Shown in pieces: positions 6,001 through 53,755 of a stretch of 54,438 nt of DNA. Position 1 is the stretch's first letter. The number at the start of each line of letters is the position of its first letter. The position numbers were made by a program, and so were the translations under genes. The notes under the pieces were generated by a model, which saw nothing but the letters and a program-made list of their open reading frames with translations, ran no database searches and was not told the origin of the DNA. This stretch comes from a virus (Duplodnaviria; Caudoviricetes), in IMG/VR virus record IMGVR_UViG_3300037882_000418, positions 1 through 54,438 of that record. One strand, written 5' to 3'.

Positions 6001-6945
6001 AGCTTTATAATTTTCAATCTGTACCCTTACTTGATCTAAATTACTTTGAAGTTCTTTAACTAAATTAACATTAGCTACTAAATTTAAGCTAGCTAATCGT
6101 ATATCAATTATTAATTGATCTTGTTTAGCTTCTTCTTTAGATAATCTATCATTTATGATTTCTAGTTCAGAATCTATTTCAGTTCTAATTTGCATTAGAA
6201 TCTCTTCTCTAGACTTAACCAGTTTACCCGGTACTATTTTACTATGCTCATGAAACCTAGACATAATCCAAGCCTTAGCGTTAGAGTATGCACTAGAAGA
6301 ACCAAAGTTTTCTAATATAAAAGAATAATTTGCAGTATAGTTAGTGTCTATTCCTTTTACTTTTTTAGAGAAATAACCAGACCTGATTAGTTTTTCAAGT
6401 CCCTTAATATCTTTCTTGTTAAGTACAAAGAAATTAAATAAAGCTTTTGCTTGCTGTATAAAAGAAATATTAGAACTTACATCTTCGTATATATGAGCAA
6501 ATGCGTGTTCTTGTTGTTTATCTGTTAAGTCGTAGAAACTATTTCCATACTCTTTTTTAAGAGCTTCGTTAAATCTCTCTTTCCATCTAAAAGACATACC
6601 ATACTTATAAAGTAAGTGCATTACTTCGTGAGATAATATCTTTTTAGATAACTTACTGTTGCTATCTAAACTTAACTCAATTGCACCGTCTACTATTCTT
6701 CCTAATAAAGAAGTATTATTAGTAAGCTGTGCATTAATAAGTTTAGGTATAAATTTTAACCAAGAACCTACACCTTCTATTTTAGCATTAGGTAGCCAAG
6801 CTCTAGTTATATTTTTAGCTTCTTCTATAGTAATTAAATCTTGAGGTTTATCTAACGTAAAAGCAGCATCGCTCTCTAGATTTAACTTTTTATTTAATTC
6901 TTCTAAGGTAATTTGTTTACCCTCAACATTCCATGTACATTCCAT
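1..6945 (-). CDS. Giant virion-associated single-chain two-barrel RNA polymerase (crAss-like vRNAP) with N-terminal zincin-like motif; 3' end lies outside the window
   Basis: ATG at 6945 overlaps the upstream TAA (TAATG). It is absent from the ORF track, consistent with no in-frame stop before the window edge. In-frame motifs: HGSDFDVDSLF (catalytic DxDxD at 2374-2388), FRIPSTEIHS, VTDGAGFMHP, DIVKRQSG, AIDNVKD; HEVMH at 6616-6630. Confidence 0.93.
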   Translation of the reverse strand, partial: MECTWNVEGKQITLEELNKKLNLESDAAFTLDKPQDLITIEEAKNITRAWLPNAKIEGVGSWLKFIPKLINAQLTNNTSLLGRIVDGAIELSLDSNSKLSKKILSHEVMHLLYKYGMSFRWKERFNEALKKEYGNSFYDLTDKQQEHAFAHIYEDVSSNISFIQQAKALFNFFVLNKKDIKGLEKLIRSGYFSKKVKGIDTNYTANYSFILENFGSSSAYSNAKAWIMSRFHEHSKIVPGKLVKSREEILMQIRTEIDSELEIINDRLSKEEAKQDQLIIDIRLASLNLVANVNLVKELQSNLDQVRVQIENYKAIVNGLTSLISHRREGTSPIIIKLIKSIYPNWSLDMDYVNKIGKAYDSEFITMEEKLQIVQDSDSLRNETVVDEMEDQEMKISTSVKDFLAFIKVTDSSDPYDLRGYVNSSCAFRTMLDWFAKYIDLSNLSLESMHDIIDTIHQKENLNLWGEALLTNLRKVMESALRTRTKFNDVAIRVYQDPTSNKIYYGAYVSTFDTGDLSGRPTAVLYSTKNANWSRKVVEAKDSTDTMQQLFNFIKEQRPEFTIEDFNDIYQHTIAINVLNALHNHLGSLDERDYLQATVEYKSYTEDGRKGYKYIVKYINPSETTTSQDIRNQLQRGFADAIIKGKLTPSSVIPNSDLISVRNFIKDTLGLPHIASILRLKDTEILEFVGTLSQIKNHIGELTPKLKKELSFEEKEAIILEWAIEGHTTRFKKISNILSKDNKQQRPTSVIDSENNRIFKHTVSSFAIRLIKNLYYTRKAFHPQNNSTKFLGGGGTDLSSIKSHLMPDFIYTPVYQNNIFVNGINKIKSKIEIHDSIKNLFTNKSWNFNRETSKFWWSRNFLYGFLSNLESDPEKATYYQFTYQPSDGARIGTVKVNVLNKTTSLEAIQTMIDKFHYMKNIEGVKLRFLNADFYKQSNLVQSYLNTDGSDIVLRQKAAEEVYDAIIAHSKTVFPTLEKLGIKFPENTDALVKSFGVEDTQQLFSVWYANNMINGYFLNELLSGNPEYYKKGVVDIVKRQSGANGPQIKPRVGKNGSSETYNAWIVNDTEVSLNSESASQPSIRTFLEGFYSNMNLSADQIKERIDKIIDLFETSGYKVTDGAGFMHPNRWNDLSRGFSFEFHLGNVMKPMHFGIHTVFEPHSSYQTEAEARKALADMSYLRADVNGSFTFNPLSKNDKEEFQLYLPIAKPVYLKYSSIVLTDSLLGITTLNPAGKYPELVAIRDAMEANSVGELVFSSAIKLGTPANTMNLGEAIDWNFPKDTLVPKSHILKLDNNNFGFQFNPTSEPLKSVAQPTQLEYLMSLLQDNVEDSLNIYNRISQINQIKKIIFKGKGSLKQLLLSSFGGVGAERIQHLLSQGSSLNNPAIEPKAIIQIASLMRKNIIDIRMRGGKLILQTTEGISKAGDIKDIINKHPRTEYLRYFRDDKGRAIAEAIVPMGLLTPEQRVIVRNGGEVFLIAFRIPSTEIHSALTVKVVDFYDTQNTNVIIAPKEISPIHGSDFDVDSLFMLAPEVLNKETIIGNKVFGKDEIIGKKKVYIDNKIVGYENDFDTWNENIKAALDANPDIATERKLRELQIKLASNSIIDSFINVTTDPKNADRMAAPISKELFVKDSGDVAGEKSGLLLLGERGLIAYDPDAKSPFDVPMDLTKAEDSLKSHESVSEGMQLTGVFANNTKVFAILAKSIAGLKSRIQDKYITNWNIEGVEYKLDQIRDNTLRGNTLTWQILDSLVNLAIDNVKDQALNKFRINSKNANIVASIFALGLPVGDFALMSGSSIWRRLASDEFKNVKTGASTIAKELGISLSEYTPITLSFEILDELLTLEKESILTPEQIARKQTIQASLLKNIQTWNNFGNFVKLISDLLTPLRDIPTDMDRLETLDSKINYVFPEVNFAENNHTLMNDLNEKLDMIPEVKKSGVGHIMDISHILINHPHVYTALRTVKEAIQGIRNEILIHNPNINSIVTTKVGFKSDFSESKHKVNMRREFARFLLSNIAFKGMNIKSTRVWTRTFTEDVKSLREFYFRLIKDDATGELDNKFLQYITVDYNKQYKSSKVTMVNTLSFNESDVLEIVEGFMNLKRFYKDEDGKWQYNFSNMSPTNLDSEFSDLQRNFVLYNLITSGLSYGVTNYSVYIPYDLYKDIEKDYVDALSELIANFNNLDKNYVTRLLVTFYMKAALSYIDKVPEVKTVKEQKQEGETEDSVIKVIKNNTPEELKDKKDFSVNKGYKLDATGKPVFYDLLFGFTDSKYRAESIGVDENYSSEFSLDNESEETIEGDDAFKPKDEVVKSKTDP

Positions 6946-9900
6946 TATTTGCAGGATTTTTTATAAAATTCTTGTTTTACTAAATCGTCAGTTAACCCAA
7001 AAGATTTACCTCCAATCATAGCTTTTAATTCCTCTTCTAGTGTTTCTTTTTCAAAATCACTTCCTTCGTCATATTGTATTTTAAGACTATTAGCCATGTC
7101 ACTGTCTATAGATAACTTAGTTAACATCTCATCTAATGGGTGACTTTTAATTTCATTAGTTGTTTCAAATGTTTTTAAAGAATACTGAATGTATTTTTCT
7201 AAGGATGCATAAGTAGCATCATATATAGTTATAGTATCTTCTTGTATTCCAAATAGTTTTAATACTGCGTCCGCTATTTTTTTAAATATATATTTTACAG
7301 AAGGTAGCAAATTTTGCTTACTAGCTAATTTAATAAAGTTAGCATCAACTACGTTTGCAACAAACTCTCTTATATCTAATTCTGAAGGAGTATCTGATAC
7401 TATCTTCATTAGTGCAGTATTAGATTTAGCTTGCTCAAATATAAATTCTAATTCTTCTACAAATTCTTTTTCTTCTGTTGTTAAAGTTTCTCCGTCTTCT
7501 TCTTTATATAAAACATCTAGAGTAATAACATGAATAAACTCATGTAATAAAACTTCTGGGTTAGCTATTATAGCAGGTATATCCCAAGTAAGTATTTTAC
7601 CTTCTTTATTTATAGCGTCATAAGTAATTCCTCCACCATTATAGAATTTCATTTGTTTCCAAGCAGGAATTTCATAAATCTTTGTATCATCCCAAGCTGG
7701 ATGCTTTTTAAACAATTCTACTAAAGCTTGTGTATGTGGAGGTCAATTAATATCTAAATCAGATAACTTAACAGACTTTCCTCTATTGTTTGGATCTAAT
7801 CCTAAGTTAAGCTTTTCCTGATCAGTCATTTGAGGTGGAGCGACTGGGATAGGGTTAGAAGTCTGTTTTACTTCAGTTTCTTTAGGAATCTGTATAGATA
7901 ACTTAGATGCAGTTACTCCAGTAAACTGAGTCTCAAATAACTTCTCAGCTAGATTTCTATCAGCTTCAGTATGCAATTTTCCAAAGTTTCGTACAGAAGA
8001 ATTACTAAATTTACTGTCTATCTTTTTAGCATTACGAACAATAGGTATTCTAAAGTTGTATTGACCATTATTATTTTCTAATAATTGTTCTATATCTTTT
8101 TCAGTCATTCCATTTGTAGAAGCTCTATTCATTAAGTTTAATGCTTCAATTTCTAAATTTGCTTTCCATTCTTGAGCTGCTTCTAAACTACCAAATACAC
8201 TTAATAAACTAGGATTATTAGCTGCTACTGAATTAACTATAGCGTCAACTACTAAGACTAATGCTAAAGGAGTTTCTCTTTTAGTTTCTGAATTTTGAGT
8301 TGCAAAAGATAGAGTACCATCCGTCTTAAATATAAAATCTATATTAGATTCGTCATATGTAGTACCATCTAATAGTTCATCGGATTCCCAAGAAGACATA
8401 CTACCTTTAAGTGCATTTAAAGCCTCATTTGTTTTTTCATCTCCTAAAGCTCTAAATAATACATCTTGTAAGCTTTTCTCTAATAAAGTTTTAATATCTT
8501 TCTTTGTTTGAAAATCTACTAAACCTGTAGCAAACAAAGATTTTGCAGCTCTATAACTAAACTTCTTACCGCTCTCTACCTTATTCCTCTCAATAGTCAT
8601 TGATAATTGAGCATTTGCAGAAGCTATTAAATCAAAATCCTTTTGAATTGGCCCAGCACTTCTAGTAACTCTAGCAGCCTGCGCTAATGTACCTTGCCCT
8701 GCTGCATCTTTTTCGTAGTATAATACTTTAGAATTATCTTCTAATTGTAATTCTTTTTGAATATCTTCTATAGTAGCATTAGGATTTTTAGTTAAGTATA
8801 AGTTCATTTGTTTCTCTTTCAGTTTTACTGAAGGAACAAATTGCCCTACTGCTGCTGCATCTTTACTTAACAACTGTTTATATTCTGCAAATGTAATATA
8901 TTTATTACTAACAGAAGAACCATACACTAATGGAACTATTATATCTAGATTATCTTCTAATTTTTGTAAATCTACATTAGTAAAATTAAGCTCGCTAAAA
9001 GTATTGAAATCAAATTTATTAGCTTTGTTTACAGAGTATTCAAACTCATTTTTATCGTTTTTAGTTATTTTTATTTCATATGCTTTTTTAGCATAAGCGT
9101 CTAATAGTCTATCAAATTGCCCTTCTTTTACTACTCCATTAATTATCTTCCTATCATTTAATTTAAATTCTGGAAATATAGATTTTACTTGTGTAAAAGC
9201 TTTATAAAATTCAGTAATCCTATTTACAGCAGTATCTATATAATCAATTCCTAAGTTAGAATTATATTGTTTAGGATCTAGTCTAATAAATATAGGTTGA
9301 TGCCCTTTAGATGCTGATCTTTTTGCTTCCCAAGATATATTATCTATACGTAGATAAGGAACGCCTACTTGTAACTTAAAGTTTTTTAGTCCTATATCTT
9401 TAACTTGTTTAGCATCATAAATTACTACAGATATATCTGGGTCTTGATTATTAGTTGCTTTAGACCAATTAATTGGGCCGTTAAGATATGTAGAGAATAT
9501 ATGACTAGAAGGAATTAAGTTTAGTAAACCTTTAGCCCCTGTAAAGAATTCTGTAAAGAACTTAGGAATTATCGTATTTAAAGACAACGGATTTTTAGTG
9601 CCGTCAGGCATATGTATTTTAAGCTTAGAATTTACTGTTCCTGCTTTAAAACTGGCCATAGCTATACTATCTAAATTTTTAGCTTCAAAACCTCTTCTAG
9701 CTGCTGGAGTAAACCCATCTATATTATATACTGGCTTAGATAATAAGTCGTTCTTTAAAATATGTTTACCTAGTGGAGTGGAATCTTCAAATTCTTCTTT
9801 ACCTAATACAGCCACAGGATATACTAAATTATTAGAGTTATAATTTTTATCTTTTGCTACAAGTAATCTTAAGTCACTCGTTGTTGATCTTAATATATAG

Positions 9901-12900
9901 TATGTAGAGTAATCTATATTACTATTCTCTGGGCTAGATAACAAGTCATTATCTGGATACATTATAAAATGTTCTTCCCCATCTACAGTTAGTGGTGGAA
10001 TAAACATAGGTTCAGTAGGTATTGGTTCTTCAGTATCTTCAATTACTTCTGATTCTTCTTCTGCACTTTCTTCTTCAATTACAGGGTTTTGAGCTACAAC
10101 AGTAGTTTGTGGAGTGGCTACAACTACGGGAGTAATATTAAATAACGAAGCTAAAGAATTTAATCCTGCTACATATTCTTCTTTTATAATTTTAAAGTCT
10201 TCTGCTAATGAATTAGCATCCGCTTCTAAAGTGTCTGAATGTAAACTATCTGCATTATAACCAAAAGTAACTACACCTGCAAACTTAATTGCTCTACCTA
10301 TAGATGTATATAAAGCAGTGTTGTATTCTGGTTGAGTAAATACTGTATTATAAGCATTTCGTTGACTATTATTGATTGCTATATAGACTTCTTCTGCTTC
10401 TATACCTTGAACAGCTACATAATTTAATACCCTAACATTTGGATCTAATCCTAATTGTTGGTATCTTATTACTTCTGCATCATTAGCTACAATAAGAATT
10501 CTTTTTCTAGCCGAAGGTCTTTTTAGTATTTCTACAACATCAGTTTCACTTACTTCTTTTACTCCTAGGGCTGTACTAGGGTCATTTTTTAAATCTGTTA
10601 CAGTAGCTTTATTGGATGTAAAATCTACAGAACCTACTGGATTTAATTTGTCTTTAAATGCTAAAGCAGCATTTGTTATAGATGCTATATTAGTTCTATA
10701 AACTATGGATAGTGGAGCTGTATGATATACGTGTTTCTCTGTAGCAGCTACGTGAACTACTCCTGATCTGTTTTGAGATTCATCCCCAGCTAGTATAACT
10801 TTTATTCCTTTTTTATTTGCTTCATTTACAAGGTTAGCTACTTCATCATTAGTTACAGCTAACGACTCATCTAATACTATTAATTTCTTATTATCTAAAG
10901 AATTTAAATTACTTAATATGCTACTGATAGTATGTACTCCTTTTTTACCGAATATAACATCATTGAGTTGGTCTGTAGTCGTAGTATTATGCCCTAATAG
11001 AATAACTTCATCTTCTTTAAATAAATTTAAAGCTATACCTAATTTTACTAAATTATTAAGAACAACTTTAGTTTTTCCTGTTCCAATTATACCTTTAATA
11101 GTAGCAGCATTAGAATATAATATATTACTATTCTTTATAGTAAACCAATTAAGAATTTCATGTATTAAAGATTTTTGTTGAAAAGTAGGAGACTTTTCTG
11201 TAGTAGACATTTTAACTTCAGCTTCGGTTAAATCTTTTAGCTTTAAAGAAGAATTATTAGTAGTAATAATTTGACGTAAATTCAAATTGTACTTATGTTG
11301 CTTCATAAATTCTCTAAAAGAGTTAGCAACATTATCTCTAACTTGTAAAGGTATATCTGAAAAGTTAGATTTCTCTAAGTGTGATTCCAATTTTAGAATA
11401 TCTAAATTAGTTTGAAATTCTGCCCATGCTGTAGTAGATTTAAATTGATCTGGAAACAAATAGTAAACAATTTGAGATAATAAATAATTAGGATTAGTTA
11501 CATAGTTTTCTATTATAGATGGAAAGCTAGTTATTGCTGATGCTGTCCTAGTTGTATTTTCCCTATATAAAGTTTCTATCCTAAGAGAAAAAGCCTTATT
11601 ATCTTTTAATTGGTCTAGTATATGTAGTAACTTATAGTAAGCATAATCGTCTGTATATATTAATTCTAAATCTTTATCTTGTAGATTTAAAGTAGATAAT
11701 AATATAGATTTAATTTCAGAGTCTTCAAATAAAGACTTAATAGATACTACTTTATCTAATTCAATTCTTTCTTGAAAAGCTGCTCTAGATTGAGCTTGGT
11801 TTAATAAAGATTGAAGAATCTCTTCTAATTGTTTTACTATTGCAGTTACTTTAGATTCTAATAGAGGCTGTAAGTTTTCTAATTCGGATTTATCTTTAAT
11901 ATCTAATAAAGCAATTTTAGCCTTCTCTAATTCAGCTTTTACTGTAGGTATTTCTTCTGCTAAATCTTCTTTCAAAGCTCCAAACTCATAAGAGTTATTT
12001 ACAATAGATATACCATTAGCTAAATACTCTATAAAGAATCTATTTAATAGATACGGTAAACTAGATGTATTAGATTCTAATCTAGAAAAAGAAGATACTT
12101 GCTTAGTATATTTAGTTTTTAAAGAATTAAGATTGTTTAGTTGAGCCAACTTACCTTGTATTTCTATATATCTAGGTTCTAATTCAGGCTCCTCTATGTT
12201 ATCATCCGACTCTAAATCAATTAATTCATTTTCTAAATCATCCTTTAAAACATCAATTGAATTAAAAATATCATCTATAGAATCTATAGGAGCTAATAAC
12301 TGAGAATCGTTAATATACCTAGTTAAAAACCTCTCATACTCTTCAATATTATCTTCTGTTAAATCATCTATGTCTTCGTTTTCAGCTAAGAACAATTCTT
12401 TATTTCCTTTAGCTCAATCTACTTGATCTTTTAAAGGTATATCTAAAGACTGCTTAGAACCGAAGCTTCTAGCAGTGTTAGTATTTTGAACTTGAGAAGA
12501 CAACTTAGAACTTAATTCAACACTCTCTGTACCTTCTATAGCTTCTAGTTGTTTAACTTTTAAATCTAAAACTTTTGATCTATAGAGTAAAGCATCTTTA
12601 GCAGACTTATCTTTTTCTTTAGCTATTTCTTCGTTTAAAGCTCTTTGTTCTCTTTTTAATTGTAATAAAGGAAATATTTGCTGTTTATAAGCTTCTTTTA
12701 TCTTATTCTTATTTTCTTTTAAATCTAATAGTAAAGCTTTTTTATCTGTAATTAAAGTAGTAATGCCTTCTTTTGTTTTATCTGCCGCAGTTAGAGATAA
12801 TTTTTCTAATGCTTTTATCTGTGCTGAAGTTTTAAATAAAGTCTTCTTCATATCAATATTGAATTGACGAGAATCATCTTCGTTATCAAAATCATTTGCA

Positions 12901-14582
12901 GAATAAGAATCACTTTCTACTTGGTCATATAAATCCATATATGCCATTACTTCACTCTTACGAGTCTGAAGTTCTACAGCATCAGCATTATCTTTTAACT
13001 TGTTAGTTATGATATAATCAATATCTTCTTTAGTTAAGTTATTTACTTTAGCATAAGTAGCTATACCATAAGCAGAGTCAGATAAAGCATCTTGTACTGC
13101 ATATTCGTGATGAGTTTTATCTCCTTTAACAGAAGCTTTAAATGCTTGATCAAATAAGAATTTTTGATATAAATTATTGAATCCTTGATTTCTCCATTTA
13201 GTTTTGTCTACTTCTACTTCACCTGTCTGTGGATTAACATAATTTATTTTACCATCATCTGTTTTTCCAAATTCTTTTAAAATAGAATTATATCTATCAG
13301 GTAAAGACTTTCCAGTATTAGCTAAGTAATCAACATAATTATTTATATTTCCTTGGTAAGCTTTTAATAAAGATTTATTAAAATTAGATCCTTCTCTATC
13401 TGCTAATGCAGAAGTAGTACCTCCAATTATTCCGCCAAGTAATATACCACCAGCAGCTTGATCTTGATATGATCCTGCTTCTGGCCCAGTCTCCAATAAT
13501 CCATAACTAGCTATTTGAGGTATGGTCTTCATAAATCCTTTTACTCCTTCATACCACCTTTGAAATTGGGAATCATTAGTATTGGTAGTTCCTGTAGCTT
13601 TAGCTTTTTCATATTCAGAAACAGCTAATTGAATATTTTCTTCCCATAAACCTTCTGAAGCTAAACCTTTCAAAGCAGATTTACCGATAGAACTTTTTAA
13701 TTCTTCTTCAGTAATTTGATCTAAAGCCTTTACTGATCTAACTCCATCAAAAGCTTTTTTATTATGTAGCCACTTAGTCTCTAAAAAGTTAGGAGCCATT
13801 AAGTATAGCATATTATACTTAAAAGTATTTGATGCTGCTGTAGCTGCTTTTTGATCAATCTCTGCTTCAGACATATTAGGAAACTTAAGTTTTAAAGATT
13901 CTTTTACAGAATCATATACTTCTTTTCCTTCAACCATTGATTCAGAAGTAGTAGCATATAAAGTATTAGCAATTAATCCTACTGGGTTAGTCGCATCAAA
14001 CCCTAATTTAGCTCCTGCTTTTGACAAAGCACCTGTAAGCTTAGTAGCTTGTCCAACTTTACTAATTTGTGTACCCGGTACGTAAGCCGAAGCTAAGAAC
14101 TCTATACCATCCATAGCGTCTTGTGTCCACCAAGATGTAGTAAATACTTTTTGAGCAGTGTTACCTGTTAAGTATTTTCTTGAAGGATAAATAGGATTAG
14201 CAGCTTCAATTTCTGTTTCTGCATCATCAAATGCAGTCATTATTGTGCTATCAAAAGCTCTAGACCATGAAAAATCAATATCATCATTAAATGCTGCTGA
14301 AACTCCTTCTTGTACTAAACCTGCTACGCCAGCAAGTCCTGCTCCTAGTTTATACCCAATAGACGGTATAGCTCTTTTAGACGCATTAAATAATTGACCA
14401 AATGCAGATTGATTTGCGCCTCTAGTAAATGCTTGATTTCCTCCCGGCCTTAATCCCTGATCATAACTATTGTAGGGAGAAGTATTGGGTACAAAGTCTT
14501 GCGTCTGTACAGCATTAGTAGGTCTATAAGCACTTGGGTCTATTGCAAAAGATTCAACTTGCGGAAAAACTTGTGGTTCCAT
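6945..14582 (-). CDS. Giant ejection/cargo protein (~2545 aa): N-terminal hydrophobic helices, central SF1 helicase-like domain, C-terminal zincin; two in-frame TGA codons (12414, 7743)
   Basis: ORFs 12414..14582, 7743..12395 and 6945..7715 are in one frame, separated only by TGA (VD*AKGNKELFL; DIN*PPHTQALVELF). Walker A GIIGTGKT (11070-11093), Walker B LIVLDES, VQGIE and YTSIGRA motifs; HEFIH (7530-7544) followed by EFVA. Confidence 0.85.
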
Positions 14583-18855: not shown

Positions 18856-19305
18856 TTAGTTATAGACTCTAATTTCTAGTAAGGTACTAGAAAAAATATC
18901 ATTTTTTAAGCTTCCGGCACTATCTATGCTAGTAATAGTTAAGTTATTCTGATTTGTAAAGTAGCTACCAAAAGTAGTAGTAGAGTCTCAACTTGAATTT
19001 GTATTACCAATCAATATTGCAGTTTTATTAGGTGTAAAAGAACCCTCTATAGATTCTACATTGTATTCTCCTTCACTTAAAACAGAAAAAGTAATTTCTC
19101 CTAATTCGTTTTGTAGAATACTAGCCACGGGAGCAAATGTACTGGTTTGTGTAAGTATAGCTGTATAAACTTTATAAGGTTTTATATTTTTCCATAAAGA
19201 AAGTTTATTAGCCCCTTGGTATGTAAGAACTTGGCCTACTTGTCCTTGTGGAGTAGTATTTAAAGTATATAAACCACTACTATATAGATTTTTTCGATTT
19301 TCCAT
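18856..19305 (-). CDS. Hypothetical beta-rich protein (149 aa), one in-frame TGA (18988)
   Basis: Read-through adds DSTTTFGSYF...LLEIRVYN and ends at TAA 18856, just before the next ATG (18851), filling the gap. Confidence 0.75.
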
Positions 19306-20432: not shown

Positions 20433-20874
20433 ATAATTTAAAAGGTATAGTTCTATTTTCAAATTTGGGTAAGTCGTATTGAAATTCTTGAATTCTTCTA
20501 AATATACCTTCTTTCTTACTCATTCAAAATTGTGCTCCTACTTTCTTAGCCTTTGCTATTTGTTCTAAATCTGAGTCATCAGAAATAATTCCTATAATTA
20601 CATTATTCCCATACTCGAAGTTAATTTTTCTAATAAGCTCTATCCCATCATATGATGAGCCTATTAAACTAGAAGTCACAAATACTACTTTAGGTCTGCT
20701 ATTTAAATTAGCATCTTCTTTGAAAGCTTGTTCTGCAGATTCCATAGTGGAAAATACTTTTAACTGTATAAAATCAGTTAGTATTTCAGAACTTGCTTGA
20801 AAAATTGTTTCAAATACTTTATTGTCATCTACTAAATAATACGAACATACTTTATTAATTTTATTTTCCATCAT
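20425..20874 (-). CDS. Stand-alone response-regulator receiver-like protein (149 aa), one in-frame TGA (20524)
   Basis: REC features: YYLVDD, DGIELIRKI, IIGIIS, and AKKVGAQF*MSK (the beta5 Lys lies after the TGA). Read-through ends at TAA 20425, overlapping the next ATG. Confidence 0.8.
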
Positions 20875-42981: not shown

Positions 42982-45900
42982 TATTATTAAATATTTTTTT
43001 ATTATTAGCTAAAAAAGATTCTATCTCTTTTTCAATTTTATCTGGTTCAGTAATTATCGAGACATATTGGTTGTGAGTTTCATTTAGACCTATAATACAC
43101 CCCATAAGACTCATTATAGCGTCAAAGTTACCGTCTAAGTTAAATGCTATAAGTTGTTTTATTGTGTATTTACACCTTAATTTATGAAGATTTCTTATTA
43201 CCCTATCCCCATCTAATCCTCTTTCTTCTAGTAACCAATCTCTTAAATAGTTTATACCTTCTAATTTCATACCTCTAGAAGACATGGGGTAACCATAAAC
43301 TAAACTTGGATTACTAGAAAAACTTGCTTTTTTAGTTAGAACAGTTTGAGGAGCATGAGCAAGTAAATCTAATCTTTTAATCTTTTCAAAATACTCTTTT
43401 GTATTTCCCCTTACATTTTCAAAGTATATTTTAGCACTACCATAAAATAAAGACAATTTAAATAGAGTTTCGTTTACTACATGTCGTCCTTGCCACGGTC
43501 TTGCAAAGTAAGTAGCTACAATCTCATCGTGTCCTATTTTAGTACCATATTTTTTAGTTTTTATGACGTGTATAGCACTTAACGAATCTCCAGAGGGATC
43601 ATCAATAGCTTGAGGGTCATGTCCTATTAAGTAAGCTCCTTCAGGAATACAGCCATCTACAAATTGAGGAAACTCATAAATAACGACTGCACCTTCTTTA
43701 GAAGACCCCTTCCAAGGAAAATCATTAATAGGCATTAATACCTTATCAACATCTATTTTATAATTAACTCCATTATATTCAGGAGATTTAGGGTCAAAAT
43801 ATAACTGTACAGGAATTTCTAAAGTATCCCAAGCTTTTTTATTTTCTAATTCTGCTAATACTTCTCTAAGTTCTATGATAGGCATTATTGCCCCATCTTT
43901 AGATAAAAATATTTCAGAAGGTTTTAGTGGTCTATAAACTATTTCCGCTTCTAATAGAGCTGAAGAACCTTTTGAATTCCTTAACTTAGCTCTATCTTGT
44001 TCAAGTTGTTTTATAGCAGGTTCTTTAATAGTATTACCATTCTCATCTTTAAACTTATTAAGACCTTTGTAAGCTGGGATAAAATAACCTATTCTGCCTC
44101 TAAATTCCCACTCATCATCAAATGATAGACAATCATAAGTTTCAGGCTCATAGAATATTTTCTGTACATCCACTGTACCTGAGTCCATGTCCCCACCAGT
44201 ATTATGTGTTATAAATCCATTTGCTAAATAAGTATGAGAATTATCTGTAGTTATATTATATACGTCTTGTTCTCCAATATCTGTAATTTTAGTTATGGAT
44301 ACTGATTTAGTATTATAGATATTAGAACATTCATAGTTTCCTATTTCACTAGGTACATAAGTAAGAGTTTTTCTATTCCAAAGTTTTTTAGGAGTAAATA
44401 ATTCTACTTTATCCAAAGCATCTTGCTTATGATTACATTTTAAAGCGAATGATTTTTTAAACTGAAATACATCCTCATATTTTGATATGTACAGTCTATA
44501 TATAGGTTCATTGGATTTATACCCATTTTTTCTAAATTCCTTCCTAATCGCACAATGTATCCCATATTTTAATAATAGGTACTTCATTTGATTAAGTAAA
44601 AATAAAGAAATAGAAGTTAATGTAACTTGTACATATTTATTTTTCTTTATACCTACATTTCCATCTGCATCAAAGTAACCACTAATAAATTGAGATAAAG
44701 TCTCTTTGTTAAACATATGTATGTTTCTAGGAAAACATTTATCTAATTTAGATTTACCTTCTAAATTTTCAGATTTAACTAGATTCACTATGTTCTTAAC
44801 ATAGTAAGATTTGAATCCGGTTTTTTCATTATATGTTTTTGTAGTTACTTGATAATTAGATTCAAAATAATCTTGTAATTCTTTTTCTAACACAGAGATT
44901 TCTATTCCGCCATGTTTATAAAAATATCCGTCCCCTACTGAGTAACCTAGTAAATAAGCATCTTTATTTTCTAAAGTTCCAAATATTGGAACTTCATTAG
45001 CTAATAGTAATCTATCAGTTAATTTTATATCTTTAGCTAATTTAAAAGTAGCAATAGATTTTTTTGATTCTCTAACTAAAATTGGATGATCTGTGGAACA
45101 TTCTATAAAATTATTATTGATACAATCAATTCTTACACATGGCTTTTTTTGTGGGGGATTTATATTTACTAAATCATTAGCTTCAATATGAGCACTATCA
45201 AATCCTAATATACCATCTACAAACTTAATATTTTCAATTGGAGTAATTTCTCCATATTTATTGTATACTTGAGTCCCTTTACATACGCAACCGATGAATA
45301 TAGTAGTACCAAATTTAACTTTATCTTCTGTTTGTACAGATACTAAAGCAGTATATGTCTCAATAAGATTAGGAAACATGCCTACTTCTTCTAATAAGAT
45401 TATACCTGCCCTAGAACCTTGAGCAGCAAATGGATTATCTCTAAATGTAATATTTTTGATTGTAGATTGAGAGCCTACGTATTTCCAGTTACCGCCTATT
45501 TTCTTTTTATACCTAGCAGTTATTTTAGAGCCAGATTGCCATCCACCAACATATCTCTGATAAAAAGGATGTGGGTAAGATACGCCTCCTATATCTACAG
45601 CACCCGGTAAATTCTCTATTGCTATTTTTGTCTTTACAAGTACATCATCAGAGTATTTAGCATCTGCTGCCCCTACAATTACTTCTGAAGAAGTTTTAGC
45701 TCCGGGGTCATAAGTAGTTTGCCCATTAAATAAATATTCATGTCCTACCACTCAAGAGTTCAAGTACGACTTTCCAAAATCCCTAGGCCCAAGCATACAT
45801 ATATTCTTAGATGGATTTTCATATAAAGGTCTGCCTTTATTAAACTCATGTATCTTTTCTAAATTTTCTCTAGGTGGAATATATTTCTTTAATAACCCAT

Positions 45901-46294
45901 TAGGTGCAATTACAGAGGGGTAATTTGCTACTAAGTAATCAGTAGCTTCAAATATACCAACCTCATTCATTTCCTTAACAACTATATTAGAAGTATATTC
46001 TGTATCTAATATAAACCCAGAGAACCCACGAGCTTCAGTTAAATACCGATGGTACTCTCACTCTATATCACGCAAAAGGGGCCTAGCAAAAGATTTAACT
46101 TTTGAGGCCCCTAGCGTTCTTCGTATTGTGCCAAAATTGGCATAAGAGTAGAGTTTACCCGGCATGTATTTGCCGGATACCCATTCTCCCTCAATACTTT
46201 TTCTTTTTTCTTCTCGTCAGAATGAAATATACTTATGAGATAAAGGATGATATTTAGGAATTTCTTTTAGTAAAAATTCTTCGTTACTTATCAA
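42938..46294 (-). CDS. terL: Terminase large subunit (~1118 aa including intein); three in-frame TGA (46217, 46058, 45752)
   Basis: From TTG 46294: YHP..YISF*REE...LRDIE*EY...GPRDFGKSYLNS*VVGHEY. Walker A GPRDFGKS, Walker B ILLEEVG, nuclease motifs IGHDP and GNFDAIM. Confidence 0.9.
44201..45289 (-). mobile_element. Intein (363 aa) with LAGLIDADG homing endonuclease inside terL
   Basis: IFIG|CVCKGTQV...CSTDHPIL...LLGYSVGDG...FISGYFDADG...VYNIT..HTYLANGFITHN|TGGDM; removal restores the GTGGDM motif. Confidence 0.93.
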
Positions 46295-46733
46295 GTTTTA
46301 TTTCTAACTGTTTTAAAAGTCTTCTTAATTCTGATATATTTTTTATTACTCCTTGGAATATAACTCCTTCGTAAGAATTTTGATTATAAATTATAACACT
46401 GTTTTCTTCTGGATAAAAATCTAAAAATGTATCTTTATTTATTAAATAATGAAATAAATTTTCTTTATCTTCTACAAACCCTAAAGATATAATATCATCT
46501 GAGTCTAGGTATTTAACTCTAAAGTTTTCTTTTATATAATTACCCCACTCTTCAACTTTTTGATCATATATACAACTGTATAATCCTAGGCTAAATTCTT
46601 TTATTTTTTTTCACTCTTCTGGCATAGGATAGTGATCTGAGGAAAGCTCTTGTGCAACTGTATTTATTTTAGTTTCACATTCAAACCCAACATGAAATTC
46701 AGATATATCTGGGGTATAATATTTATTAGACAT
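46284..46733 (-). CDS. Conserved crAss-like hypothetical protein (149 aa), one in-frame TGA (46611); absent from the ORF track
   Basis: [20 protein letters not shown]...EE*KK...RVKYLDSDDIISLGF...FQGVIKNISELRRLLKQL; TAATG-coupled to groEL and overlapping the terL start. Confidence 0.8.
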
Positions 46734-48343: not shown

Positions 48344-48593
48344 TTTTTAATTTTTTATAATAGTATTCTACAAAGTTATTATATGCCCTTTCTGCATTGG
48401 CTTTTGTAGAATAAAATCTTTTACGTGCAACTATAGAATCTGGATTTAATCTTAATCGTAGAAAAGAATCTACTTTAGGATAATACTCAGGAATTTTTAC
48501 ATACCCAGCTACAAACTCAAAATTCTCTCTAAGAAACTTAATTTCTTTTGTCTCTGATTTGGAATTATAGTCTTTATATTTGTGCTTAATCAT
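48336..48593 (-). CDS. Hypothetical protein (85 aa)
   Basis: Intact ORF overlapping both neighbours. Confidence 0.65.
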
Positions 48594-48990
48594 TTTCTAA
48601 ATTTTTTGAGTTTACAATAACGTAGTTTTTAGATGTTATTGCTTCTGATAATTGATAAATTGCATTCTTTGGGGAGTTATCTACTGAGTTATGAGGGATT
48701 AATATTTTAATCCCAGTGTTAGGGTTAACATAAACTTGATATCTTTGAAATTGCCTAGTACGTAATTTAAAGTATTTTTTCTTTCACTTATCTTCACTAT
48801 TTTTTGTCTTAGTGAGGTAGTTATTTAAAGAATTTATTTTTTCTTTAAACCTAGTGTCTATAACCTGATTTATGTATTCTTCCTGATTTCTAAATTTATA
48901 CTCACAGTGTTTTACCCAAGATAATAAACCTGTCAATGTAAACCACTTCGTACCCATAAATTCTATAGGAGGATTGAATTTGATAATCAT
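48586..48990 (-). CDS. Hypothetical protein (134 aa), one in-frame TGA (48784)
   Basis: Read-through (SEDK*KKKYF...NLEND) fills the gap and ends overlapping the next ATG (ATGATTAA). Confidence 0.7.
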
Positions 48991-49036: not shown

Positions 49037-49089
49037 CAACTGTTTAGCAAAGTTAACCTATGGCAAGGTATTATCTTTAAATTATTTTG

Positions 49090-49184
49090 CACGAGCTGTA
49101 GGAATCGAACCCACACTCCAGCTTTTGGAAGGCTGGGGGTATAGTTTTGAAGACTACTTGCTAGCCAATTAGCACCTAGCTCGC
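49090..49184 (-). tRNA. Opal-suppressor tRNA (anticodon UCA) with 26-nt variable arm; 3' CCA not encoded
   Basis: Acceptor GCGAGCT/AGCTCGT with G73; D stem TGCT/AGCA; anticodon arm GTAGT-CTTCAAA-ACTAT (TCA at 49150-49148); T arm GTGGG-TTCGATT-CCTAC. Confidence 0.9.
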
Positions 49185-49207: not shown

Positions 49208-49714
49208 CTATATAAGTTCTTGTTCAGATATAGATTCTACTGCTGTACCTTCTAGTTTAGAATCTTCTTCTGCTACGTCTTTTAAGCAATTCTGATATTG
49301 CTTCCACATCTTTTCTGTTAAGGACATCATTTTATCTAAATCCTCATAAGTATTTAAAGAATAAGGAATAGATGCAATTAACTCTTGTCTTTCATCTAAT
49401 TTAGCTTCCCAAGCATATAAATATTGTTCCGCTTTAGAGAGACAAAAATTCTTAAGAGTTTCTGAATGTTCCTTAAAATGATCCCAATCTAATTTAAAAT
49501 CTAAATACTCTAATTCTATAGTTTCTCTTCTTTTTAAAAGTGGAAGATTATTATATATAGACTTAGGATGAAAATCTAATATTAAAGCCCAAATTATTTT
49601 AGATATATTATCTTCTTCATATTTCTCAATAATACTCTGAATAAACTTTTCTAAAGTAACTAATTCAGGATACATTAATAAGATATCTTCAGAAGGATTT
49701 AATTTTATTTTCAT
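49208..49714 (-). CDS. Conserved helical protein (168 aa); terminase small subunit candidate
   Basis: SKIIWAL..HPKS.Y..LP motif, coiled-coil C-terminus ending ESISEQELI; upstream of terL. Function is inferred only. Confidence 0.6.
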   Translation of the reverse strand: MKIKLNPSEDILLMYPELVTLEKFIQSIIEKYEEDNISKIIWALILDFHPKSIYNNLPLLKRRETIELEYLDFKLDWDHFKEHSETLKNFCLSKAEQYLYAWEAKLDERQELIASIPYSLNTYEDLDKMMSLTEKMWKQYQNCLKDVAEEDSKLEGTAVESISEQELI

Positions 49715-50031
49715 AACTCTCTAAATAAAGGAAATAAATCTGTATTAGATTTAAGCATGGAATAGAATGAGGGAGTAAGGTTACCCTTAAACTCCTCCCA
49801 TTCTGAACATTCCATGAACATTTTTCATTTGCCTAACTTATCTACTTTAGAAGAACTAAAGAATAAGTGTGGGGATTTACATTTACAATGAGGACATATA
49901 TTTAATTTCACACAAGATTTACATAACATCATTCTGTACATAACTTGCTCTCTAATATATTTAGGCATAGACTTCCTATTAAAATAAGCCCAGTAACCAT
50001 TAAATAAATTAAAAGCATCTTGTGCTACCAT
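49705..50031 (-). CDS. Small Cys-rich (Zn-finger-like) protein (108 aa), in-frame TGA at 49825 and 49711
   Basis: EQVMYRMMLCKSC....CPHCKC.SP...GK*KMFMECSEWEEFK. Confidence 0.75.
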
Positions 50032-50348: not shown

Positions 50349-50762
50349 TTAATTAACGTTAATAACTTTAGATTGTAAAGAGTGAACATCTACTTGCAAA
50401 TATCCTTGAGAAACAAGCATATGAGAATTTGTATTGAAATAAAGAATGCTAGATGGGTGTTCTACTACATTTTTATATAGTGCTACTTTATCCCCAACCT
50501 TAATATCCATCATTTCTTCTTCTATATTAGCTTGCGCTTTATTCGATATTTTAACAATAGTACCAATATTCTTATACTCTTTAGTTTCTATTTTAGCTAC
50601 AGGTCTTCCACCATCAGATTCGTAATCTACATAAAGTGGAACAACCACTCCATTTTCGTTAACTTCCATTGGCTTTTCTACCTCGTCTAGAAGGACTACT
50701 ATCCCTTTGCGACCTAAGGGTATATAGTTGTCTATCGAGTACACATTTTTGTAATTTTCCAT
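50349..50762 (-). CDS. Divergent GroES-like co-chaperonin
   Basis: IPLG..IVV....E...NGVVVP......GTIVKIS......IKVGDKV pattern; 2 kb upstream of groEL. Confidence 0.65.
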   Translation of the reverse strand: MENYKNVYSIDNYIPLGRKGIVVLLDEVEKPMEVNENGVVVPLYVDYESDGGRPVAKIETKEYKNIGTIVKISNKAQANIEEEMMDIKVGDKVALYKNVVEHPSSILYFNTNSHMLVSQGYLQVDVHSLQSKVINVN

Positions 50763-51114
50763 TATCTTTTGGATTTGATTTTATTTTTTTATTATAATAG
50801 TAATAGTAATTAATAGTTGATTTTGAAGCTCAAAGTTGTCTAAACAAATTTACTATATTGCTAGGATATTCTATTCCTTCTTCTTTACACTTCCTAAAGT
50901 ATATAAGAAGTTTTTTAAGGGTCATCCTATAATTCTTTATCCACACATAAAAAGACCCTAAACCCGGTAAATGTACTGCTGCAGAATTCATAGAATAAAA
51001 ATTCTTTTTTAACTCTAGAAAATAATGCGTACAAACTAATCTAATTAAAGGCTCAGGTATATCTGAAATTGCTGATGCTTTTTCATATAAATCTTCATAT
51101 CTATGTAGATACAT
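50659..51114 (-). CDS. HU/IHF-like protein, in-frame TGA at 50830 (3' end uncertain)
   Basis: Two N-terminal helices, then VHLPGLGSFYV. Read-through (LFRQL*ASK) ends at TAA 50659, overlapping the GroES-like gene by 104 nt. Confidence 0.6.
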
Positions 51115-52122: not shown

Positions 52123-52142
52123 AATTATATTATTTTATACAT

Positions 52143-52174: not shown

Positions 52175-52185
52175 TAAATTACGAA

Positions 52186-52542
52186 CTATTTTCATTTTCA
52201 GGTAAAAATAATATTTCTAAAATCCTTAGCTTCATCAATAGTTTTAAATCAAAAATTAAATTCTACTGGTTTAGCATAAATAACTACTCTCCATAGTAAC
52301 TCATACTGCGACCATTCTAAATCTAAAGCAGTAACAGAATCTTTAGTTACATAAGTAGAAGAATATTTCGGGATAACAGCTTTTTCTATATCTGATTCTA
52401 TATCAGAATCTACGTCTTCAAAAGTCTCTACATCTAACTCTTCTAAATAATGTAAGTAATTCTTTTCTAGCTCTAAATAATTCTTTAGAGAATTAACTAT
52501 TTTATAGTCTTTTAAGGAGAGATGAGTTAAATGTATAGTCAT
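52186..52542 (-). CDS. Hypothetical protein (118 aa), in-frame TGA at 52249, 52198 and 52192
   Basis: Read-through: EFNF*FKTIDEAKDFRNIIFT*K*K, then TAG just before the promoter. Confidence 0.65.
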
Positions 52543-52544
52543 AA

Positions 52545-52739: not shown

Positions 52740-52741
52740 AA

Positions 52742-53074: not shown

Positions 53075-53076
53075 TA

Positions 53077-53457: not shown

Positions 53458-53470
53458 GTTAATTAACAAT

Positions 53471-53755
53471 TTAAAAATCTATATAAATATCTTTCTGAAA
53501 CTTAATATTCACTCCTTGACTCCACCTAATAAGAAACATATAAGAAACATCTTTTCATGTAGTATCAATAATTACTCCATAACTAGGAGAATACCTGTAA
53601 TGAAATCGAGTATCTTTTAAAGTATTAACACATCATTTAGCGTAACTAGGGTCATTCATAGTAACCCATTTAAACTCTTTACCACTATGTTTACCAAACT
53701 TTAAAATACTATCATAAAAAATATAATACTTAATTTTTGACTCAGAATTTTTCAC
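53471..53755 (-). CDS. DUF3820/ExoX-C-terminal-like small protein (94 aa), in-frame TGA at 53633 and 53555; absent from the ORF track
   Basis: GTG start; LKFGKHSGKEFKWVTMNDPSYAK*CV fits the FGKxxG...PxYxxW motif; fills the gap. Confidence 0.75.

Follow-up and report, generated by a model that had tools for sequence, protein, structure and literature searches.

That crAss-like phages from the human gut read TGA as tryptophan has already been published (Yutin et al. 2021, PMC7886860). According to the text of that study, the recoded phages carry in-frame TGA codons for tryptophan in conserved genes, including the large terminase (TerL), encode a suppressor tRNA, switch codes over short phylogenetic distances and combine an intein with recoding in TerL. 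A survey of code-4 phages, released as a preprint (Borges 2021, 10.1101/2021.08.26.457843), describes in its text low G+C content, loss of TGA as a stop codon, gain of a suppressor tRNA and TGA codons in structural genes; suppressors were detected in only 35% of code-4 phages, and the host TrpRS was expected to charge them. In an E. coli cell-free system, 13 out of 13 tested phage tRNA(UCA) species inserted tryptophan (bioRxiv 10.1101/2025.10.30.685624).

We analyzed a window of 54,438 nucleotides, that is, the whole stretch of viral DNA presented here, which has a G+C content of 31% and forms a single same-strand gene block. The window and its clade share with the gut phages the in-frame TGA codons for tryptophan in conserved genes such as TerL, the suppressor tRNA, the code switches over short distances and the pairing of an intein with recoding in TerL; with the code-4 phages they share the low G+C content, the loss of TGA as a stop, the suppressor tRNA and the TGA codons in structural genes. 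Unlike the recoded gut phages as described in PMC7886860, the window clade is distant by TerL and portal and contains GroEL, TGA accounts for only 13% of the tryptophan codons of the window, and none occurs in the capsid or portal gene. Unlike the 'code change module' set out in the preprint text (10.1101/2021.08.26.457843), neither a TrpRS nor an RF1 gene was found in the window. The recoding of TGA to tryptophan is thus a known phenomenon, and the new element is a suppressor tRNA with a fifth arm whose loop displays CCA. This arm is not mentioned in the main text of Yutin et al. 2021 (PMC7886860), the words 'variable arm' do not occur in the text of the Borges preprint (10.1101/2021.08.26.457843), and our literature search found no published description of a CCA-loop fifth arm.

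The window comes from a divergent crAss-like phage and spans about half of its genome; the assignment is based on Pfam and PHROG domains and on pairwise identities to known members. The crAss major capsid (PF23898, E = 9e-67), the muzzle, with both its N and its C domain, and ring proteins 1, 2 and 3/4 were detected in the window using Pfam, and the muzzle and ring matches (PF25731, PF25729, PF24228, PF25702 and PF25710) each exceeded the curated cut-off. The portal (PHROG 6547, 6e-113) and TerL (PHROG 6681, 9e-82) were identified using PHROGs, and the minus-strand order of TerL, portal, one gene and capsid is the conserved order of crAss-type phages. A reading of the sequence alone (the sequence-only reading) had inferred that this lineage, with GroEL and different gene content, may be a case independent of the gut crAss-like phages; by these matches it does not lie outside the crAss-like phages. 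Identities to known members were low: for the portal of the window, at most 28% against any INPHARED phage and 29% or less against gut crAss records. The TerL of one clade member (P0002) showed 34% identity with that of Cellulophaga phage phi14:2, the nearest isolate, and 22–32%, over part of its length, with those of gut crAss phages. The nearest cultured relatives, phi14:2 and the Flavobacterium psychrophilum phages of the FpV4 group (portal identity to the window 28%), are crAss-like podophages of Flavobacteriia and are very distant from the window. The host is probably an environmental member of the Bacteroidota. Judged by sequence comparison, the clade is crAss-like but very divergent, lying far from the gut groups. 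In an 81-row TerL tree of the clade, standard-code relatives were interleaved with recoded ones and the recoded state required at least eight changes, which makes gains of recoding separate from those in the gut groups plausible.

The sequence-only reading had listed 23 in-frame TGA codons in 14 minus-strand genes. All 23 coordinates proved to be TGA, in frame on the minus strand, within 14 ORFs delimited by TAA or TAG; a possible 24th codon (53126) is counted or not according to the start codon chosen. Its statement that the other genes end in TAA or TAG also held, since the terminal codons of 40 gene models comprised 34 TAA, 5 TAG and no TGA, with one model running off the window, and the amino acid contexts that it quoted (SF*REE, LRDIE*E, NRS*TLSY, IVD*K, GAQF*M and PSYAK*C) were all present. 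We then took minus-strand stops closing an open frame that runs for 80 codons or more and scored those followed by at least 30 further open codons. The frame remained open past 10 out of 12 TGA codons (median 265 codons), compared with 1 out of 31 TAA or TAG codons (1/27 TAA and 0/4 TAG). The base following the codon was T at 3 of the 23 in-frame TGAs and at 24 of the 39 real stops. A comparison of coding density between the two codes, which had been proposed along with the recoding claim, likewise favored TGA as a sense codon: greedy ORF cover was 94.2% (52 ORFs) under code 11 and 97.4% (45 ORFs) with TGA as sense, compared with 91.4% when TAG and 94.8% when TAA was treated as sense.

Under the standard code, the TGAs would be real stops and the downstream pieces would be separate genes lying in frame by chance. 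The code 11 ORFs still cover most of the window, and most of the downstream pieces have a potential start codon shortly past the TGA. Against this stand the frames left open past TGA, the conserved tryptophan columns and the phage tRNA(UCA) considered below, and the explanation is refuted at no fewer than 13 of the 23 sites by domains or homologues spanning the TGA; we give it next to no credence.

The genes in question all lie on the minus strand. The muzzle gene (20892..24929, 1345 aa; TGAs 22905 and 21543) comprises three ORFs under code 11. Its crAss_MUZ N domain (aa5–354) and C domain (aa1176–1236) were found in one frame using Pfam, and six homologues in one piece (1322–1358 aa) cover 100% of the queried residues 600–1345. 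The TerL gene (42938..46294; TGAs 46217, 46058 and 45752), recognized by PHROG 6681, contains a LAGLIDADG intein recognized by Pfam intein domains. For the 2545-aa giant protein, which has an AAA_30/helicase-like domain (6945..14582; TGAs 12414 and 7743), single HSPs in the relatives G001 and G003 cross 12414 (from aa17–24 to aa1767–1821), while the sole support at 7743 is the 265 open codons downstream. A protein of 757 aa (16578..18851; TGA 18525, followed by 648 open codons) showed N- and C-terminal HSPs in the same frame across the TGA in the same two relatives. In a 165-aa protein (25725..26222; TGAs 25938 and 25851), HSPs covering aa37–163 in G001 and in G004, a genome that uses the standard code, cross both TGAs. 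The tail fibre (804 aa, 30461..32875; TGA 31820, 452 open codons downstream) carries a Peptidase_S74 chaperone domain and had a single, weak HSP across the TGA, in G002.

Among the smaller genes, the ExoX-like_C match (aa18–45, Pfam) in a 94-aa protein with an ExoX-like C domain (53471..53755; TGAs 53633 and 53555) spans the TGA at aa41, and the Response_reg match (aa14–122, Pfam) in a receiver-domain-like protein of 149 aa (20425..20874; TGA 20524) spans that at aa117, the latter with a score (24.2 bits) short of the curated cut-off (30.2). Read-through gave ends adjoining the next gene in two further 149-aa proteins and a 134-aa protein: the first (18856..19305; TGA 18988, 43 open codons) ends just short of the next start, the second (46284..46733; TGA 46611, 108 open codons) has a stop overlapping the TerL start, and the third (48586..48990; TGA 48784, 65 open codons) has a stop overlapping the next start. 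The 108-aa protein (49705..50031) contains TGAs 49825 and 49711, of which 49711 is ambiguous: it falls where a start and a stop overlap (ATGA), and a TAA follows two codons further on. Also ambiguous is TGA 50830, followed by 56 open codons: if it is read through, a 151-aa ORF results (50659..51114), whose extension is of low complexity and runs 104 nt into the next gene. In a 118-aa protein (52186..52542), TGAs 52249, 52198 and 52192 all fall in the last 20 codons and are weakly supported: one of four aligned homologues (P0113, 115 aa) extends past the first TGA, with Y at that position, and three end earlier. Accordingly, five TGAs near gene ends (50830, 52249, 52198, 52192 and 49711) could still be stops.

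These five codons favor an explanation in which UGA is only partly suppressed, ending some genes (50830, 52249 and 49711) and yielding elsewhere a mixture of truncated and full-length products, which would make recoding a timing or dosage device set by the tRNA level. The low share of TGA (23–24 codons against 159 TGG) points in the same direction, as does its complete absence in frame from the capsid, the portal and a giant protein of 2315 aa. On the replication-gene strand of the complete relative G005, the frame stayed open for less than 40 codons after 31 out of 41 TGA events, and recoding has been modeled as a regulator of late genes in the texts of Yutin 2021 (PMC7886860) and Borges 2021 (10.1101/2021.08.26.457843). 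However, a TGA stop is not clearly required by any gene of the window (0 of 39 terminal codons), the essential TerL and muzzle require full read-through of two to three TGAs each, and the tRNA shares its strand block with the recoded genes, eight of the TGAs lying upstream of it. We regard such dual use as rather unlikely, though deserving of more weight than the standard code.

We examined homologue columns for the residue that TGA encodes. Tryptophan was found in 52 out of 56 homologues at TerL aa26, in 55 out of 56 at TerL aa79, in 32 out of 34 at muzzle aa1129 and in 15 out of 16 related loci at aa69 (49825) of the 108-aa protein. At muzzle aa675, the six closest homologues have Y (Y, L or N overall), and the residues facing 25938 and 25851 in the 165-aa protein are F (2/2) and S (2/2; aa124), respectively. 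TerL aa181 is a variable column, with G in 20 out of 56 homologues, and the column at aa723 of the 2545-aa protein contains P, R or K. Among the ten of the 23 sites with homologue data, four columns are near-invariant for tryptophan, two are aromatic (Y/F) and four are variable. The columns at TerL aa181, muzzle aa675, aa124 of the 165-aa protein and aa723 of the 2545-aa protein vary and thus speak neither for nor against tryptophan.

HSPs in 80 related loci contained 99 in-frame TGAs, compared with three TAA and no TAG; these TGAs lay opposite a tryptophan of the window 40 times and opposite one of its own TGAs 17 times. TGA and TGG interchange at identical columns among the relatives, and in five relatives W or TGA was found opposite the TGA sites in 15 of 36 cells, similar to the value for the TGG-coded tryptophan sites of the window. 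In G005, a family-A DNA polymerase is also interrupted by an in-frame TGA. The conserved columns, the TGA/TGG interchange and the phage tRNA(UCA) together support TGA as a sense codon for tryptophan, as the sequence-only reading had proposed, very probably read by means of the phage's own tRNA. Alternatively, the phage might follow a host with a TGA-sense code (code 4 or 25); TerL aa181 faces glycine in most relatives, which fits code 25, in which TGA encodes glycine. Yet the same protein has two invariant tryptophan columns, the phage brings its own tRNA(UCA), only 13% of tryptophan codons are TGA at this G+C content, standard-code relatives are interleaved on the tree, and the nearest isolates infect Cellulophaga and Flavobacterium. 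This makes a recoded host very improbable.

The tRNA with anticodon UCA, found using ARAGORN, lies at 49089..49184 on the minus strand, which is the coding strand, about 2.8 kb upstream of TerL. It has 96 nt, five helices, a 7-bp acceptor stem, an acceptor/T geometry of 7/5, a D stem of 4–5 bp with a 6-nt loop, a G1.U72 pair and a discriminator G at 49090. The anticodon arm (49141..49157) has a 5-bp stem and the loop CUUCAAA, with the anticodon at 49148–49150, and starts one base past the D stem, which is the canonical tRNA spacing; this loop is shared with canonical bacterial tRNA-Trp and the opal suppressors derived from it. In the variable region, a fifth arm (49118..49136) consists of a 5-bp stem (CCAGC/GCTGG) and a loop with UUCCAAA, in which CCA occupies 49126–49128. 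This loop reads U-CCA-A, CCA being the anticodon of tRNA-Trp. Among tRNA-bearing relatives, the gene lies 2.4–5.8 kb upstream of TerL in 10 out of 10 loci. In a comparison of five fuller relatives, tRNA(UCA) is carried by the three that have in-frame TGA and by neither of the two that lack it.

No Rfam family matched the window tRNA at the gathering threshold, as the best match, tRNA-Sec, scored 38.8 bits against a gathering score of 47. This match, the ARAGORN label of tRNA-SeC, the long extra arm, G73 and the UCA anticodon could indicate a tRNA-Sec and hence selenocysteine at the TGAs. The Rfam score fails the threshold, however, and the geometry is 7/5 rather than the 8/5 of a 13-bp acceptor/T branch, the D stem does not have the 6 bp and 4-nt loop of a tRNA-Sec, the TGA columns contain tryptophan and not cysteine, and the 23 sites fall in structural genes, so that selenocysteine has the slightest probability of all the explanations considered. 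A natural point of comparison is provided by the allo-tRNAs, on which Mukai et al. 2017 reportedly worked. As described in the text of Krahn et al. 2020 (PMC7609411), tRNA-Sec and allo-tRNAs resemble the window tRNA in their long extra arm and G73 and, in some cases, in the anticodon UCA, but have acceptor/T geometries of 8/5, 8/4 or 9/3 and a serine identity, in contrast to 7/5 and tryptophan codons here.

The window tRNA belongs to a widespread, phage-borne class, of which we found at least 45 distinct five-arm members in viral contigs. It scored 76.6 bits with the covariance model R1 and has neither G2-C71 nor G4-C69, two pairs that class members typically show; most of the class has an AGGGGC-type acceptor stem. 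RNAalifold predicted the extra-arm helix from 47 tRNAs, with compensatory changes at four pairs in 24, 14, 6 and 9 sequences. Five tRNAs of the window clade, which were found without the motif and are only 48–77% identical to one another, all retain UCCAA in the extra loop. In a scan with the extra loop unspecified, TCCAA was present in the extra loop of 34 out of 61 distinct long-arm tRNA(UCA) stretches, while 25 had a different, Sec/Ser-like arm; nearly all arms with a 7-nt loop contained UCCA. Five true alphaproteobacterial tRNA-Sec also matched the class motif, with CCA in another register only. The five-arm type is linked to TGA-specific read-through: at loci with such a tRNA, read-through followed 53 out of 129 TGA compared with 43 out of 477 TAA or TAG codons, and at control loci 47 out of 242 compared with 86 out of 410. 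Recoding can do without the extra arm, since three relatives (L016, L020 and L021) are recoded with an ordinary tRNA(UCA) of 72–75 nt.

The major identity elements for tryptophan are the anticodon, G73 and pair 1-72, as given in the text of Giege and Eriani 2023 (PMC9976931). Like bacterial tRNA-Trp, the class has an invariant G73 (47/47) and a weak 1-72 pair (A-U in 37 and G-U in 8, including the window). Unlike tRNA-Trp, which is of type I and has only a short variable loop, the class carries a hairpin of 17–19 nt that repeats the CCA anticodon loop, and in the window tRNA the anticodon is UCA and CCA is located in this second arm, in the variable region. Because SerRS also favors a long extra arm with G73, again according to the text of PMC9976931, some serylation of the tRNA may occur.

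We propose that the class arose by tandem duplication of the anticodon arm and variable loop of a tRNA-Trp. The first copy, at the canonical anticodon position, would read with UCA, and the second would have retained the 7-nt loop N-U-CCA-A-N. The host TrpRS would charge the phage tRNA(UCA) with tryptophan, and the charged tRNA would compete with RF2 at UGA. In our preferred but still tentative reading, it is on the second arm that TrpRS finds the CCA identity element, which would divide decoding and identity between two arms. Somewhat more speculatively, the tRNA might be a natural 'split-identity' tRNA, in which one duplicated arm mutated to UCA and the other serves as the TrpRS handle, or in which the arms swap between charging and decoding.

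We give about even chances to the extra arm having a role other than TrpRS recruitment: it might brace the structure, serve loop-modifying enzymes or host anticodon nucleases as a substrate or decoy, swap places with the UCA arm, or simply be left over, as a neutral relic, from the duplication. Recoded relatives with a short, armless tRNA(UCA) favor this possibility, as does the general charging of phage tRNA(UCA) with tryptophan by E. coli extract reported in the text of 10.1101/2025.10.30.685624. Moreover, because linkers of 4–5 nt flank the extra arm on each side, either arm could occupy the anticodon position of the five-way junction. A neutral relic, on the other hand, should lose its loop, whereas here the stem has been turned over by compensatory changes with UCCAA kept despite the divergence of the clade tRNAs, and the loop-unspecified scan returned UCCA in almost every 7-nt-loop arm.

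These results have consequences for annotation and for the biology of this group. Under code 11, 14 genes of the window are fragmented, including the terminase, the muzzle, the tail fibre and the 2545-aa giant protein, and truncated products have already entered the database, namely a terminase of 937 aa (P0006) and a small protein of 97 aa (P0112). Detection of the tRNAs is affected as well: besides the window tRNA, the Rfam gathering threshold missed 5 out of 20 other class members, and ARAGORN missed one and labeled all class tRNAs as tRNA-SeC. The analysis adds an environmental crAss-like clade in which the code switches between standard and TGA=Trp no fewer than eight times among 81 terminases. 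If the extra CCA arm recruits TrpRS, it would represent a natural separation of tRNA reading from tRNA recognition, and a ready design for efficient opal suppressors. A change of anticodon also destroys an identity element of the tRNA, and split identity, if true, would be a general, phage-borne escape from this constraint.

The window comprises an entire IMG/VR virus record (54 438 nt). Pfam and PHROGs matches identify it as sequence of a crAss-like phage, linear and 53% complete by CheckV estimate, with a G+C content of 29–37% across its length and all genes on the minus strand. They cover the crAss major capsid protein (37857–39329, E = 9e-67), the portal (40558–42981), the large terminase (TerL; 42938–46294, with a LAGLIDADG intein), the muzzle protein (20892–24929), ring proteins 1, 2 and 3/4, two tail fibres and a muramidase (19280–19900). 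Adjoining the muramidase, a small protein (20425–20874) resembles a response-regulator receiver domain at a score below threshold (24.2 bits; cut-off, 30.2). The intein, with its LAGLIDADG homing endonuclease, occupies approximately residues 365–698 of TerL, leaving all three TerL TGA codons in the N-terminal extein; terminase inteins also occur in several relatives (L039, L042 and P0001). A GroEL-type chaperonin is encoded directly upstream of the terminase (46733–48343). Its gene contains no Trp codon, neither TGA nor TGG, and its product is 39–44% identical to GroEL in all five relatives fetched whole (G001–G005); the closest GroELs of known phages (38–42%) belong to phages that are not crAss-like. 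Two adjoining giant proteins, at 1–6945 (at least 2315 residues, no Pfam match, no TGA) and 6945–14582 (2545 residues, with an AAA_30/helicase-like core), are kept in relatives at 20–27% identity and may correspond, in this clade, to the virion cargo or RNA polymerase proteins of crAss phages.

The window is distant from phages described so far. Among the 124 INPHARED records that match its portal, identity across nearly the whole protein never exceeds 27.7%, and the Flavobacterium phage FpV4 group comes closest. The TerL of a clade member, P0002, shares 34% identity with Cellulophaga phage phi14:2 and 22–32% with gut crAss phages. A search of viral contigs with the single muzzle protein as query found no close relatives, and we therefore used an alignment of TerL homologues instead, which recovered 361 IMG/VR relatives, of which 80 loci were kept.

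The sequence-only reading had placed 23 in-frame TGA codons in 14 genes. All 23 are indeed in-frame TGAs inside ORFs bounded by TAA or TAG, and the count of 14 genes was upheld. The gene models end in TAA (34) or TAG (5) and never in TGA, with one open at the window edge. We compared how often the frame stays open after each stop, counting only stops preceded by 80 or more open codons in frame: at least 30 more open codons followed 10 of 12 TGAs (median 265 codons), compared with 1 of 31 TAA or TAG codons. A U directly after the stop codon favours termination, and the next base was T at 24 of the 39 real stops versus 3 of the 23 in-frame TGAs. Coding density, also proposed as a check, was higher with TGA as a sense codon (97.4%, against 94.2% with code 11) but discriminates weakly, and the read-through contrast was relied on instead. 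The pattern of in-frame TGAs is far from chance. Counting all TGAs in TAA- or TAG-bounded ORFs of relatives was dropped as uninformative, because the true TGA stops of standard-code genomes are counted too.

Homology extends across many of these codons. The N and C domains of the muzzle protein recognized by Pfam (residues 5–354 and 1176–1236) fall in separate code-11 ORFs, and six homologues of 1322–1358 residues span 100% of the part searched (residues 600–1345). Homology in relatives runs across the TGAs at 12414, 18525, 25938, 25851 and 31820, one such relative being the standard-code genome G004, and Pfam domains extend over 53633 and 20524, the match over the latter being below the Pfam curated cut-off. 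Counting also 49825 and the sites in the terminase, homology supports at least 13 sites. Six more (7743, 18988, 46611, 48784, 53555 and, partly, 31820) are based on long open frames that close neatly at the next start. Another five are ambiguous: at 50830 reading through runs 104 nt into the following gene; 49711 is part of an ATGA overlap and is followed by a TAA at a distance of two codons; and 52249, 52198 and 52192 fall in the last 20 codons of their gene (52186–52542), where one of four aligned homologues (P0113) passes the first site, with Tyr in the column, and the other three stop before it. Two homologues of this protein, P0114 and P0115, terminate exactly one residue ahead of a window Trp, which is what code-11 gene calling would give if their next codon were TGA.

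The amino acid was examined in homologue columns. For TerL, 57 homologues were found and 56 aligned, leaving out the window's own truncated product; the column at residue 26 contained W in 52 (Y, 1; gap, 3) and that at residue 79 contained W in 55 (L, 1). In the muzzle protein, aligned with 34 of 54 homologues (P0058–P0091), residue 1129 faced W in 32 (Y, 1; F, 1), and the TGA at 49825, in a small protein, corresponded to W in 15 of 16 related loci. The TGA columns not occupied by Trp were all variable, namely TerL residue 181, beside an indel (G, 20; A, 12; N, 6; E, 6; others), and, in genes named by their first coordinate, residue 124 of g25725 (S) and residue 723 of g6945 (P/R/K); muzzle residue 675 was Y in the six closest homologues and variable elsewhere. 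In the reverse direction, window proteins were compared with the 80 related loci by tblastn. The aligned segments contained 99 in-frame TGAs, spread over 19 loci, 3 TAAs and no TAG, and the TGAs faced window Trp (40), window TGA (17), Y (9), L (9), a gap (5) or other residues (at most 3 each). Across the five fuller relatives, W or TGA stood opposite window TGA sites in 15 of 36 cells, and Trp encoded by TGG faces W at a similar rate. The proposal that TGA most likely specifies Trp agrees with both tests. These alignments show that TGA means Trp, homologue columns being without data at 13 of the 23 sites.

The only tRNA that ARAGORN reported in the window is a 96-nt tRNA with anticodon UCA (49089–49184, minus strand), labelled tRNA-SeC. 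Rfam gave nothing in the window at the gathering score; the tRNA fitted tRNA-Sec best, with 38.8 bits where gathering requires 47. We rejected a tRNA-Sec identity: the acceptor and T stems form a 7/5 branch, the form of the D arm differs from the 6-bp/4-nt type, and the codons served are those of Trp. The true anticodon arm (49141–49157, minus strand; loop C-U-UCA-A-A) is followed on its 3΄ side by an extra hairpin, the long 'variable arm' (49118–49136, minus strand), whose loop contains U-U-CCA-A-A; it has the geometry of an anticodon loop and carries the tryptophan anticodon. The same CCA-loop arm was found by ARAGORN in four other distinct long tRNA(UCA) of terminase-selected loci (L003, L018/L041, L024 and L042), and these five tRNAs share the CCA loop yet show only 48–77% mutual identity. 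A sixth two-armed tRNA, in G003, was detected only by a covariance model (R1), and the relatives L016, L020 and L021 carry instead an ordinary tRNA(UCA) of 72–75 nt. In a non-recoded relative, a 96-nt ARAGORN tRNA-SeC(tca) on the opposite strand (L070:5900–5995) is AT-rich, has no CCA loop and is unmatched by R1; this call is probably false.

Scanning IMG/VR for a UCA loop followed by TCCAAA and a T loop yielded 110 stretches in 109 loci. At 56 loci ARAGORN called a tRNA(UCA) that includes the motif (45 distinct sequences, 93–100 nt); approximately 6 further loci appear genuine, their tRNAs having been missed or truncated, and approximately 47 are chance matches in coding DNA. In the loci with a two-armed tRNA, 53 of 129 TGAs (41%) were read through, compared with 32 of 355 TAAs and 11 of 122 TAGs, whereas in the 47 chance-match loci the counts were 47 of 242, 68 of 308 and 18 of 102, respectively; a TGA-specific excess is present in the former and absent from the latter. 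Some viral contigs with a two-armed tRNA(UCA) carry other RNAs: L136 (104 kb, with a large tRNA array) has a partial OLE RNA match (5177–5380; Rfam, 107.5 bits, model positions 279–595 of 616), and L182 (127 kb) has a tmRNA gene inside its tRNA array (714–1153; 77.4 bits). We rejected the idea that the class as a whole escapes standard tools: of 20 members tested, the Rfam tRNA model picks up 15. It misses L003, L099, L144, L084 and L128, as well as the tRNA of the window. A scan for an amber analogue (CUA loop, a CUG/UUG loop, which we take to be the matching motif, and T loop) gave a weak negative, with no two-armed tRNA among the 120 matches listed and one ordinary tRNA-Gln present by chance.

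An alignment of 47 class tRNAs was predicted by RNAalifold to form five helices, and the four pairs of the extra arm showed compensatory changes in 24, 14, 6 and 9 sequences. The order of anticodon arm, approximately 5 nt, second arm, approximately 4 nt and T arm is what a tandem duplication of the anticodon arm and variable loop would give. Because the first scan had demanded the TCCAAA motif, a second scan left the extra loop free: it required a single common anticodon arm, a long gap and then the T loop. Among 61 distinct stretches, the extra loop read TCCAA in 34 and TCCAT in 2; the other 25 had a different arm, G+C-rich and short-looped, of the Sec/Ser kind. The loop of the extra arm remains constant while its stem turns over, which argues for selection on the loop sequence.

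We placed 81 terminases on a quick maximum-likelihood tree. In-frame TGA occurred in 18, requiring at least 8 changes of state, 7 of them forced by well-supported branches, compared with a mean of 16.5 when states were shuffled (none of 500 shuffles was as low as observed). The group of the window has four members, all recoded (the window, L002, L003 and L039). Among the relatives fetched whole, G001, G003 and G005 had 17, 10 and 6 TGAs, respectively, in aligned segments and each carried a tRNA(UCA); G002 and G004 had neither TGA nor tRNA(UCA), the latter being complete, with 11 924 aligned residues. All 10 loci with the tRNA encode it on the terminase strand, 2.4–5.8 kb upstream of that gene. 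The reassignment had been described as running across the late region. In the complete, recoded G005, a family-A DNA polymerase on the other strand (L202:13498–15177) is split by an in-frame TGA into pieces of 311 and 234 residues, so recoding in the clade extends to replication genes as well. Numerous further TGAs on that strand resemble genuine stops.

TGA lies inside genes, at Trp positions, and the phage has its own tRNA(UCA) in a syntenic location. We propose that the host TrpRS would charge this tRNA, and that the extra arm might present to TrpRS the CCA loop lost from the decoding arm. In bacteria, Trp identity is set by the anticodon, by G73 and by the first pair of the acceptor stem (Giege and Eriani 2023, PMC9976931); in the aligned class, G73 is invariant and pair 1–72 is A-U in 37 and G-U in 8. 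Alternatively, a long arm together with G73 may attract SerRS. Trp was inserted by 13 of the 13 phage tRNA(UCA) tested in a reported screen with E. coli extract (bioRxiv 10.1101/2025.10.30.685624). The extra arm may also have a structural role or be a decoy, or the two arms may alternate. The arm is not a requirement, as sister phages have suppressors without it, and would be an enhancement.

Reassignment of TGA to Trp in crAss-like phages, via suppressor tRNAs and patchy among close relatives, has been published (Yutin 2021, PMC7886860; Borges 2021 preprint 10.1101/2021.08.26.457843), and the recoding of the window is an already-known phenomenon, here in a divergent environmental clade. We found no description of a two-armed, CCA-loop suppressor in the full-text literature searched, subscription journals and supplements lying outside it; term look-ups in the main texts of the Borges preprint, the Krahn 2020 review of non-canonical tRNAs and the 2025 bioRxiv screen did not find the arm. 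It may be described or drawn in supplements, such as the table of 213 phage suppressor tRNAs (bioRxiv 10.1101/2025.10.30.685624), and this absence holds for the searched texts and is not proof of novelty.

Finally, genome contigs were scanned with the UCA/CCA motif, and 7 tRNAs were present among the matches listed. Five are true alphaproteobacterial tRNA-Sec (L400, L428, L456, L469 and L497), whose extra-arm loop reads UCCAAAA in a register unlike that of the phage class, probably a coincidence and a caution for motif scans. The other two are two-armed: one is on a 6.6-kb contig of a metagenome-assembled genome (MAG), the other (L425:6260–6355) on a contig of 90.8 kb that was binned with Parabacteroides goldsteinii. 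The size of this larger contig suggests a crAss-like phage or a prophage, and it is a possible pointer to the hosts of phages with the two-armed tRNA(UCA).
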